Below are positions 30,001 through 33,000 of a DNA stretch of 64,000 nt, piece after piece. Location: the NCBI RefSeq assembly GCF_045037415.1, contig NZ_CP173438.1, one strand, 5' to 3'. The position numbers are program-made. Numbering within the stretch: position 1 is the first letter of the stretch; each line of letters starts with the position of its first letter. Origin of the DNA: Escherichia coli (GTDB lineage Bacteria > Pseudomonadota > Gammaproteobacteria > Enterobacterales > Enterobacteriaceae).

Positions 30001-33000
30001 GATGAAAGTGGGGGAGGAAATGAGTCAGAACCTGTACACCAGCATTAGGGGATTCCGCGTCTGGTACAAAGCAGACTATGAGAAGAGAGACGCTATAACA
30101 TTTGAGTCCTACCAATCGATCTGTTCATTTCTATGAATGGCAGTAAATGCAAATAACCAGAACAACCAAAGGTTTTTCGACTTATGTGTCACGAACGGAA
30201 GTAGATGGCAATCCATTGCATTACTTCAGGACGACTTTTCAGAAAGCGAGCTAAGGGCGTTGGCATAAACTCAGGCATCGGATGCTGTTTTACAGGGTTC
30301 ACCTGCCATCCAGTAGACGCCCCAGCCCACGACTGCAACCATAATTACGTTGCCCGGAACCGTCATGCTGCTTCGTCTCATATTTCACGAGATAACTGGC
30401 TCTGTTCCGGGCTTTCTGCATCGCTTCCACATCACCACGCTTGACCCAGAGCACAGCGGATCCACCCGGCTTTTTGTCTGAAGCCTTCCTGGTTTCAGAA
30501 CATCCACCCGACAAAGGCGTATCATCGGAAGAAGGGCGAGCATCAGATGATGTCGGTTTACGGAAAGGCGTCCGCCTGGAAAAATGAACCAGTCCATTAC
30601 CCTGCCAGGGCTCAAGATGCAGAGCACTACACCATGCCAGCTTGATCAGTGTCGCCAGCGAAGAAGGAACGGTGAAATCCCCTGGCGAGCACCAGGTATC
30701 TTTGTTGAGCAGTAATATCACGTGATAATGTTTCCTGCCTTTTTCCTTGCCAAACTCCCGGCACCAGAAATAACGCAGGCTGGTTGCATGCACACGCTGA
30801 TTGGCACATCTTTTTTTCCGCTGGTAAGCCTGAATTTTGGCTTTCAGGGATGCAAAAAAACGAGAAATCACCGCTGAATCCGGATCGGGATCCATGATGG
30901 TGACAGGCATATACTCAGGGAAACGTAAATCCACTCGGATTAACGAGACGGCACGGTGCTGCGCCAGGGCACTGTCGAGAAGGATGTCAAAACGGGATAA
31001 CCAGTAAGCATTGTGTATTGGTTGATTCATGATGAGAGATCTCCGTTGATTTGGATTGACTTCACATCATTCATCAACGCGGTAAAACTTTACGGCATCC
31101 GGCATTGAGCAATGCTACAACTCTCTGATTAAGAGTGATTGAAACGGAACAAACCATCCCGGAACGAAAAGATAATCCTGCACACAGCAGCAAAACACGC
31201 AACAACAGCATGAATGGATTTAAAAACGACATGGACGACGAGAAAAGCCTGAAGGGAAAAGGATCCACAGAACATTCGAACAAAACACCAGAAACGCAAC
31301 CAGAACGCTTCCTGGCAATGCAAATCAACAACAACACCAAAACCTACAGCTTAACCACACAACTCAATCACAGAGCCGAATAGCGCACTTAAAACCTGTT
31401 TACAGATAACCCTGCCACAAGAACAAAAACCACCAATATCAGAATCGATTTTCTTATCCTGAAAACGTTACTTTTCAACACACCATAAAAACGATTAACC
31501 ATCGATAACGTAAATCTCATCTGAATCAAAACACCAGAACCAATCATCACGCTTTTTCTGAAAAGAGCCTTATGATAAAGATAATCACCTTGCACTGAGA
31601 AAAAACACCAGGGCCAGTTAATCATCTCATCAATCTCATCGTCACAAAATCATCCATAGAACCATTTAACAAAATCGTCGCAAGCACACCGTAAATCACA
31701 CCAGGTTATCTCAGTCGGATTTGCGTTTTTACATAAAGACACTTGTTTCAGATTAACGATCTAAAACACGAAAACTCAGAAAAGGTTAAACGTAACTTCA
31801 GCAAAATAGAATGCCATCTTGATTGCTTAAACAGGAAAGATTGTTTTGTGGCAGCATTAAACTGATTTTAATTTTCGTAAACACAGGAGTAACAATTTTA
31901 CCAAACTGGATGTGTATCAGACAAAGCAATGTGTATTGTAATGTTTAATGAAAACACTTTTAGAAGTGTTTATGAAAATACGTGTATGTCTGGTAAAACA
32001 CTTAGTAGAAAATACGTGTATAACACTTACTGAAATGCTTAGTAAAAATACTTAGTAAAATATGTGTATATAGTATCATACCGACATTCTCAATATCTTC
32101 AGACTTCCATACATACTAGGTGTTAATTTTTCACTTTTACAGCCAGCATGGAGTTTTCTGTCCTAAAAACAGAGCAGATTTACTCTGGAATTATTTTTCT
32201 GCCCCCGTACTTCAGGCCCCAGAAAAGACAATCCGAAGCAAACCGTTTGTCAACCTCCATATCATCTTTTACCCCCGGAAAGTGATCGCGTTTTACAACC
32301 AGAATGACAGCCATACTGATTATGTCGTCTCCCGGCCCCTTCACATATAACATGCATGTCTGTCATTGCTTACTGCTCTACATGACAGGATTTCACATAC
32401 AGGATGCGCAGTCAGTGTTTTTATCGCCACTATAACAGACAGATTACTGTCGCTTTTACTCTTCAGATTGTTAATCTGACCACAAGAACAGTCGAACAGT
32501 ACAACGACACACCTAAGGAGGATATGATCCGTAGTTGATAGCATGTTTTATTTTATTATGAATAGATCAAGAAATAGTTCTTGATATGTCTGGAATAGTT
32601 TTGTGAATAGTTCTAGAATATCCCCATAATCAGCTTTGAGGTGCTTGCAGGGTGATATTTTTATTGATTCCCTTGCATATACAACTGACATGTGATGGTG
32701 AAAATCACCAGAAAAGAAAACGATTGAGGCGTAATCAGATGAAACAATATAAAGGCGGTTATAACGTGAATAGATATGACTGGAAAAATAAAACAACTGA
32801 GCATTTATTGAATGATAATAATCTGGCAGATAATCACATACCTGAATGGATCAGAAAAAATGAAATTGCAGCATTCTGGTTCTGGTTAATTATGTCTCAT
32901 ACAGTTCCCGAAAAACTTAAACTTAATAATGAATCTGAGTTCAATTCTGCCTTGAAGGGGGTGATCGTTATGAAGGATAACCCCATGACAATTATTCCTT

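Follow-up and report, generated by a model that had tools for sequence, protein, structure and literature searches.

A strand-asymmetric, A+C-rich non-coding tract upstream of an inovirus Gp2-type gene in a CP4-57/P4-like island of Escherichia coli

The DNA considered here, hereafter the window, is a stretch of 64,000 nt from the chromosome of Escherichia coli (contig NZ_CP173438.1 of assembly GCF_045037415.1). Near its middle lies a gene-free stretch of 1.7 kb (31031-32738). It is bordered on the left by a minus-strand gene of the YfjJ/YagK type (30299-31030, 243 aa), which the Prokaryotic Genome Annotation Pipeline (PGAP) names inovirus Gp2 family, and on the right by a 262-aa open reading frame (ORF) on the plus strand (32739-33527), which is divergent from the Gp2 gene across the non-coding region. 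The gene-free stretch contains the interval 31100-31900, which a first-pass annotation had described as an A+C-rich non-coding leader. In this study, we found that the interval harbors a composition-level, strand-specific property with weak sequence constraint. The tract most likely represents a composition-encoded, orientation-dependent transcription spacer, although this role is unproven.

Over 31100-31900, the plus strand consists of A 0.401, C 0.237, G 0.147, and T 0.215, and the asymmetry is stronger in 31140-31380, where T falls to 0.104 beside A 0.452, C 0.274, and G 0.170. Among 300-nt windows, A+C content peaks at 0.73 (31142-31441), the highest value in the 64 kb and 5.6 standard deviations (SD) above the mean of 0.509 (SD 0.039). 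Unrelated loci totalling about 173 kb held no window of this size at 0.73, and values of at least 0.66 or at most 0.34 occurred at just two places. The A+C skew proposed earlier for the plus strand was therefore confirmed. It extends from about 31140 to 31770, where it fades; the last 130 nt of the interval (31770-31900) are AT-rich and unskewed. The description of the DNA as almost devoid of T runs is accurate for 31140-31380 and looser beyond it, as 31100-31700 holds six T runs of at least 3 nt, the longest of 5 nt, together with two G runs of at least 3 nt. The plus strand of 31242-31769 is also the longest continuous stretch of the 64 kb in which C exceeds G, with a C/G ratio of 1.87 over 620 nt and 2.53 over 410 nt. 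The tract does lie 5' of the Gp2-like gene, as had been stated; however, this gene is on the minus strand, so that the A+C-rich strand is antisense to it and the gene-sense strand is G+T-rich.

The composition was not accompanied by a recognizable motif or repeat. Spectral peaks for a 10-11 bp periodicity of A runs, as expected of phased A-tracts in bent DNA, did not exceed the 95th percentile of shuffled sequences in the tract. Internal duplications and low-complexity repeats were at shuffle level, and TRF gave only a weak 14-nt array at 31620-31654. No match to the ops/JUMPstart or boxA antitermination motifs was found in the tract. The heptamer CTGGTGT, which holds six of the eight Chi bases, has four minus-strand copies within 420 nt (31285-31704) and 12 in the whole window; this cluster is not kept between the allele clades described below and was rejected. 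GGA motifs of the CsrA type were likewise rejected, as a hand count of the sense strand gave about 8 against about 8.5 expected from composition. A region-wide mutational skew at the fourfold degenerate sites of the adjacent genes was mild at most and within sampling error.

The tract is non-coding. Its ORFs are 82 aa long on the plus strand and 88, 64, and 78 aa on the minus strand. PGAP annotates a "hypothetical protein" of 57 aa at 31210-31383 on the plus strand (82 aa when started from the GTG at 31135), but in close relatives only, among them L001, L047, and L049. This frame is intact in the window and in L047-L049, and both this and the PGAP annotation would favor a small protein gene, as might also be imagined for a hydrophobic minus-strand peptide. 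However, stops or frameshifts interrupt the frame in six of the ten alleles (L004, L005, L006, L007, L029, and L050), and every difference among the intact copies changes an amino acid. No ORF of at least 15 codons on either strand is intact across all the island alleles. The alleles differ by indels of 1, 2, 4, 5, 7, 11, 13, 17, and 20 nt, which are not multiples of 3, the tract has no spectral peak at period 3, and Pfam and NCBIfam searches gave no family match for the tract ORFs. We therefore consider a small protein gene hardly credible, and the 57-aa product is almost certainly a spurious annotation, a compositional artefact. These data agreed with the earlier view of the region as non-coding and of its ORFs as low-complexity artefacts.

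The first-pass annotation had also suggested a structured RNA, and a covariance search was carried out accordingly. Neither at gathering threshold over the whole window nor at E<=1 over 28000-36000 and 3400-5400 was there an Rfam match overlapping this tract or the second one described below. RNA folds of 300 nt were close to those of shuffled sequences, with z-scores of -0.21 and -0.13 for the plus strand and -1.37 and -0.96 for the minus strand. In absolute terms, the plus-strand RNAs of 31201-31500 (-27.1 kcal/mol) and 31351-31650 (-32.0 kcal/mol) were the two weakest of 425 windows of 300 nt (mean -80.6, SD 15.8 kcal/mol), because the A+C-rich strand offers few pairing partners. The minus-strand RNA of 31201-31650 was ordinary, at -66 to -75 kcal/mol. 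When nine alleles were folded together with RNAalifold, 3 of 70 pairs were compensated on the plus strand and 14 of 148 on the minus strand, the latter against 10.6 +/- 1.8 in shuffles, 23 of 500 of which reach it. The minus-strand count comes from a structure fitted to the same alignment, which represents two allele clades only, and G-U wobble makes transitions neutral in a G+U-rich RNA. With these limits, the alignment folds show no convincing covariation, and we do not count them as evidence for structure.

A weak hairpin followed by a U-rich run was found at 31290-31312 on the minus strand by the terminator-like scan of the window and of L006, and it may be an attenuator in a putative sense leader. 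Its counterpart in the minus-strand alignment fold is helix 19, in which 6 of the 8 pairs are invariant and 1 is compensated; it was not found in L004. This hairpin, the 14 doubly changed pairs of the minus-strand fold, and the position 5' of the gene could be cited in favor of a structured leader of the Gp2 gene, whether a cis-regulatory RNA or one resembling a riboswitch. On the other hand, the folds at shuffle level, the lack of any Rfam match, and the small excess of compensated pairs over shuffles do not agree with it, and indels of 11-20 nt and the cassette replacement described below cut through the predicted helices. Such a leader thus seems very improbable. The tract is very probably not a structured RNA, and no RNA family should be assigned to it.

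At the level of single-stranded DNA (ssDNA), folds of the tract and of the adjoining repeat region were not distinct from shuffles (z +0.2, -1.4, and -0.4). R-loop formation would call for G clusters and a G content of at least about 40%; the displaced (minus) strand has just two GGG and does not exceed 34% G in any 100 nt.

Among 5426 complete E. coli genomes, 1876 have a homologous tract; the median in these is two copies, and the copies number roughly 3,300 in all. They are nearly all chromosomal and nearly all unannotated, and the query region is 100% identical in many human-derived strains. Their context is constant: a Gp2-like gene, non-coding DNA of about 1.5 kb, a hypothetical gene of 376-407 aa on the same strand, and a divergent GTPase gene, within a CP4-57/P4-like island. 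The sequences group into two allele clades sharing 76% identity; the window itself is a recombinant between them. All ten tract sequences compared, from both clades, have an A+C content of 0.63-0.66. The invariant alignment columns are richer in A+C (0.69) than the variable ones (0.54). The skew is thus kept in homologous islands. The sequence itself is less constrained, as tract identity between alleles is 78-92% against 91-98% at the fourfold sites of the adjacent gene, and conservation is lowest exactly where the skew is highest. This weak constraint on primary sequence fits a function that is set by composition rather than by sequence.

The tract can be divided into three parts according to the alleles. 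The three allele classes (A, B, and C, the last bearing the cassette) all have the left flank (31101-31216) and the right part (31516-31770), where the C/G ratio is about 2.5. Between them, 31217-31515 is the core of the skew, with A+C up to 0.73, and the position of a variable cassette. In the third class, which is common and is represented by L008, L051, and L015, the core is replaced by 1.15 kb with a 176-aa plus-strand ORF (L008 3339-3869, also L051 9871-10401), whose C-terminus weakly resembles a NikA-like ribbon-helix-helix (RHH) domain (E 0.011, below the cut-off). The cassette has no homology to the tract that it replaces. Intergenic positions 1-177 of L008 align to window 31031-31216 with 82% identity, nhmmer model positions 1-190 match in L008, L015, and L051, and partial matches to query 477-861 occur in many genomes. 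L048 carries a (GGTGAT)n / (CATCAC)n microsatellite expansion inside the tract (about 3345-3395, corresponding to window position ~31430), which indicates that the tract tolerates large length changes.

Outside these islands, the tract was rarely seen. Phage records held no homologue, and plasmid records gave four matches, all from E. coli. An exact 18-mer scan of one genome per species returned chance matches, one Enterobacteriaceae metagenome-assembled genome (MAG), and one mis-binned contig, and it suggests that the tract is essentially confined to Escherichia. A full-length E. coli copy lies in L020 (278-1235), a record labelled "MAG: Bacillota bacterium", which is probably contamination or a mis-binned Escherichia contig. 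In strain K-12, the CP4-57 and CP4-6 islands lack the tract.

These observations raise the question of whether the tract has any function. It may be decaying, non-essential island DNA that is carried along by linkage to its conserved flanks, the skew being a historical or mutational relic that could go back to strand-biased deamination or to an older gene, either one of low complexity or one for a membrane protein. Divergence faster than at the fourfold sites of the neighboring gene, the many indels, the tolerated microsatellite, the exchange of the core for an unrelated cassette in many genomes, the absence from the K-12 islands and from the majority of distant homologues, and the lack of any motif, repeat, structure, or phasing signal are all in line with such a relic, and the A+C-richer invariant columns are compatible with slow decay. 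However, nothing in about 237 kb of comparison sequence comes near an A+C content of 0.73, and we know of no neutral process in E. coli that yields such a local skew. The fourfold sites of the adjacent genes are at most mildly biased, neither a period-3 trace nor protein homology of a former gene was detected, and a second, non-homologous tract with the same polarity stands beside a paralogous gene. A functionless spacer is a real possibility, although on balance we doubt it.

The second skewed tract, at 4390-4700 (A+C 0.67), lies upstream of a 188-aa Gp2-type gene on the minus strand (3617-4183) and has the same polarity as the first. Its peak, 4391-4690, is the second-highest 300-nt A+C peak of the 64 kb (0.673), and its plus-strand RNA is the third weakest-folding window. 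No blastn similarity between the two tracts was found. It is present in 1576 genomes, where it is unannotated. The two strongest A+C peaks of the window thus each lie 100-500 nt 5' of a Gp2-like gene on the antisense strand; a rough calculation (1.5 kb eligible in 64 kb, two polarities) puts the chance of such a placement at the order of 1e-4. In intact islands, both tracts are found inside one co-directional gene string, so that a sense transcript would have to cross them. The second tract belongs to another long non-coding region, 4184-5293, which includes an A+G-rich stretch with only about 8% C (4880-5080). This region abuts dsdA here, and in intact islands it lies directly 3' of the yfjI primase-like gene.

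Taken together, the composition, the lack of coding and of structure, the persistence of the skew in diverged alleles, and the second unrelated tract with the same polarity are observed. That either strand is transcribed, and that the termination factor Rho reads the asymmetry, is an inference that goes beyond them. Untranslated, unstructured RNA in which C exceeds G is a textbook substrate for Rho loading, and G+U-rich, C-poor RNA is a poor one. On the plus strand of 31242-31769, C exceeds G over far more than the roughly 80 nt of untranslated RNA expected of a Rho utilization (rut) site, and this RNA is predicted to have little structure, as the two weakest folds of the window, given above, fall within or across it. 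We tentatively favor, as a reading that may well prove wrong, that the tract is an untranslated spacer acting as a one-way transcription filter via Rho.

According to this proposal, the tract would be a structure-free spacer in the 1.7-kb control region of the CP4-57/P4-like integrative island, parting the side of the Gp2/YfjJ-like gene from a rightward module of YeeP-GTPase, antirestriction, and CbtA-CbeA genes. An RNA made towards the Gp2 gene would be G+U-rich and C-poor, and the opposite RNA would be A+C-rich, G-poor, and almost unfoldable. Rightward (antisense) transcription arriving from the Gp2 gene and from the variable cargo and insertion sequence (IS) side would meet about 500 nt of untranslated, unstructured RNA with C in excess of G, and Rho may stop it short of the right-hand module and the iteron-like repeats. 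Transcription leftward to Gp2 could pass through an untranslated stretch of more than 600 nt, whose RNA is presumed to be a poor Rho substrate.

Several findings do not agree with a Rho filter. The YC dimers, which are the preferred contacts of Rho, are not enriched in the tract (11.4-13.4 against 12.1 per 100 nt window-wide). Sequences resembling sigma-70 promoters are no commoner than chance predicts, and the strongest of them (minus strand, 31924->31895) is not kept throughout the alleles. In many genomes, the 300 nt with the strongest skew give way to an unrelated cassette that bears a gene. The window, L048, and L050 have a plus-strand gene between the tract and the upstream minus-strand gene, and a "single operon" picture therefore fails for some alleles. 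Moreover, no such tract was found at the majority of distant Gp2/YfjJ homologues (15 IMG/VR loci, Brenneria, and K-12 yfjJ and yagK), which indicates that it is not needed by the gene family. Of the distant loci, only Providencia had a comparable skew (0.65); the peaks in L015 (0.62) and L012 (0.59) were weaker. In the comparison with leaders of other YagK/YfjJ homologues, which the first-pass annotation had called for, the skew was kept in homologous E. coli islands, so that the lack of conservation named there as refuting was not seen; it is, however, not a feature of the whole family.

A plus-strand transcript, if made, could also be a product in its own right, an unstructured A/C-rich non-coding RNA that serves as a sponge or decoy, for example with (AAN)n runs bound by the distal face of Hfq or by another RNA-binding protein. 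The most frequent 5-mers of the tract are AAAAC and AACAA, and runs such as CAACAACAACACCAAAACC occur on the plus strand, which is extremely unstructured as RNA; in addition, a ProQ/FinO-family protein is encoded in intact islands. However, the promoter and terminator scans give no support for such an RNA, it has no Rfam relative, its motifs are not conserved between alleles, and the core is replaced in many genomes. An untranslated RNA with C in excess of G would also be expected to be shortened by Rho rather than to accumulate. We regard a sponge RNA as improbable.

Two elements beside the tract deserve attention. The first, at 31031-31100 on the minus strand, is a conserved 5' element of the Gp2 gene with a GGAG ribosome-binding site and a dyad (GTAAA..TTTAC / CGGTAAAnnnTTACCG), showing 96-97% identity between alleles. 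An element of about 60 nt containing this dyad recurs at 3518-3575, as found by blastn, nhmmer, and alignment, and also at L051 4335-4392 and L006 3063-3118. The recurring copy has about 75% identity and is located upstream of a 190/230-aa paralogue in the same island, and the shared element is probably a common operator or promoter. A hairpin at 31031-31110 was not significant (ssDNA fold z -0.2 and -0.5), and the copy at 3510-3590 was borderline (z -1.8/-2.2). The second element is an iteron-like array at 31911-32070, outside the skewed tract and about 150 nt away, in which AYGTGTAT x5 is interleaved with (A)ACACTTAGTA x5 (also given as AACACTTAGTA x5; repeat families D3, D5, and D7). The array has a GC content of 29-31%, and TRF reports a period of 13 with 5.2 copies. 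Its copy number varies between alleles, with deletions in L004-L006. It is a candidate for operator or origin repeats of a neighboring DNA-binding protein. Further to the right, at 32170-32187, a short palindromic hairpin with a minus-strand T run is terminator-like on both strands and partly conserved in other alleles.

The Gp2-like protein itself matches Pfam YagK_YfjJ_C (E 5e-35) and REP_ORF2-G2P (E 1.5e-9, 38.4 bits against a cut-off of 27.8), both above cut-off. It carries a HYHV motif and a YLxK tyrosine, and H101, H103, and Y213 are conserved in the alignment with relatives. A conserved H-x-H together with a tyrosine is the signature of HUH-type initiators, which suggests that the gene at 30299-31030 encodes a HUH Rep-like protein. 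The protein (Gp2 type 1) has a Ser/Pro/Asp-rich insertion of about 34 residues that is missing in the K-12 YfjJ/YagK, Brenneria, and Providencia homologues. PDB sequence searches with the Gp2 profile and the two RHH-like ORFs, those of the cassette and of 32739-33527, gave no relatives. The latter, whose coordinates follow PGAP, ends in a weak RepB/CopB-type RHH domain (NCBIfam PRK13702, E 0.027, below the cut-off), and its orthologue in L048 is named "replication regulatory RepB family protein" by PGAP. On the right, it is met by a convergent 317-aa minus-strand ORF (33524-34477) with a 4-nt overlap. Other alleles have at this locus the longer minus-strand gene of 376-407 aa, without the plus-strand ORF.

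These neighbors suggest that the tract could instead be a specialised DNA site, the other option raised by the first-pass annotation, here one for the replication or mobilization proteins of the island. Action of the HUH Gp2-like protein or of the YfjI primase-helicase would expose the G+T-rich strand as a single strand. The tract and the iteron-like repeats would then form an origin-like region, and the skew would be either the cause or, through deamination, the consequence of frequent single-strandedness. Single strands that are often exposed become poor in C and A and rich in T and G, as known from ssDNA phages and the heavy strand of mitochondrial DNA (mtDNA), and this is the polarity seen here. 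A Rep_ORF2/G2P-type HUH protein with conserved HUH and Tyr adjoins the tract, an array with a GC content of 30% lies 150 nt away, weak RHH ORFs (RepB/CopB-like and NikA-like) are found on the other side or, in some alleles, within the tract, and the second tract is directly 3' of the yfjI gene in intact islands. However, no stable hairpin or stem-loop resembling a nick site was found on either strand of the tract or of the conserved 80 nt beside it, the repeats of the tract are at shuffle level, and its G content does not follow the rules for R-loops. Both RHH matches are below curated cut-offs, conservation is lowest where the skew is highest, and the relatives outside chromosomes amount to four plasmid records and no phage. 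A DNA site is rather unlikely, although it should be kept in mind. A more elaborate version, in which the island is excised and then replicated or mobilized here by the two HUH Gp2-like paralogues, each with its own skewed tract, together with YfjI and the iteron-like repeats, would make the tract a structure-free landing zone for the displaced G+T-rich strand as well as a deamination scar; this is rather improbable.

The genomic setting of the tract is typical of CP4-57/CP4-44-type islands, with YeeP-like GTPase, YfjR-like regulator, DUF932, antirestriction, RadC-like, and CbeA/CbtA genes farther to the right. In intact islands, the Gp2 gene is followed on the same strand by the YfjI primase-like gene, a second Gp2-like gene, and an AlpA-like regulator. 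The intact island of STEC383 (L051) has on one strand tract 1, Gp2 type 1, YfjI, tract 2, Gp2 type 2, the 190-aa paralogue, and the AlpA-like regulator. Window positions 1-5293 and 28000-42000 correspond to halves of the island that are contiguous in STEC383 and are about 26 kb apart here; the intervening DNA holds dsdCXA, IS elements, and further genes, and yfjI is absent. By this comparison of gene order, the island is rearranged in this strain. An IS3-family element supplies the sole Rfam family found at gathering level in the window, the ALIL frameshifting pseudoknot (24285-24401, 117.6 bits), and the window holds no tRNA gene.

CP4-57-like islands are carried by roughly a third of complete E. 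coli genomes and bear defense systems, toxin-antitoxin pairs, and virulence cargo, and they keep Gp2-like genes with kilobase-sized non-coding regions beside them. If the Rho filter is true, it would provide a simple, composition-encoded insulation of the control region of a mobile element from the transcription of its ever-changing cargo. If instead the skew marks a single-stranded intermediate of replication or transfer, these "cryptic" islands would be more active than assumed, and a HUH replication zone would turn the widespread CP4-57-like islands into elements that replicate autonomously or can be transferred, with an origin of a new type. For annotation, the consequence is that the "hypothetical protein" entries should not be relied on and no RNA family should be entered for the tract. 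In the literature on YfjJ/YagK, the Gp2 family, and AlpA/YfjI islands, we found no description of the tract.

Rho is known to load on rut regions such as lambda tR1 and trp t', and it silences antisense and foreign transcription in E. coli. Like these regions, the RNA of the tract would be untranslated, C-rich, G-poor, and nearly structure-free over at least 80 nt, on one strand only and in acquired AT-rich DNA. Unlike them, as rut regions are about 80-100 nt long, pyrimidine-rich, and shown experimentally, the tract is about 500 nt long, A-rich, and without an excess of YC. The intergenic region upstream of gene II in the Ff filamentous phages, which combines an origin with the gene II promoter and belongs to the namesake of the "inovirus Gp2" family, offers another comparison. 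The tract resembles it in being long non-coding DNA directly 5' of a gene for a HUH-type initiator, with repeats like binding sites nearby; however, the Ff region is structured, and the tract has neither origin hairpins nor structures like the packaging signal, nor any similarity to phage records.

With regard to the skew itself, the light strand of vertebrate mtDNA is A+C-rich and its heavy strand G+T-rich, and ssDNA phages package T-rich strands. The skew of the tract is likewise one of amino against keto bases, in the direction expected from deamination of C and A on an exposed strand. It differs from these genome-wide skews in being confined to about 650 nt, with the neighboring fourfold sites mildly biased at most. 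Finally, a class of Pseudomonas islands has been reported with integrase, AlpA, Gp2-like, RadC, and HTH core genes, in which the Gp2-like protein is a likely core function whose role is unknown (PMC12595487). Although no skewed non-coding tract is described in those islands, and CP4-57 and CP4-6 of K-12 are also without one, the islands studied here share with them the same core gene set, an AlpA-like gene on the integrase side, Gp2-like, RadC-like, and HTH genes, along with defense cargo.

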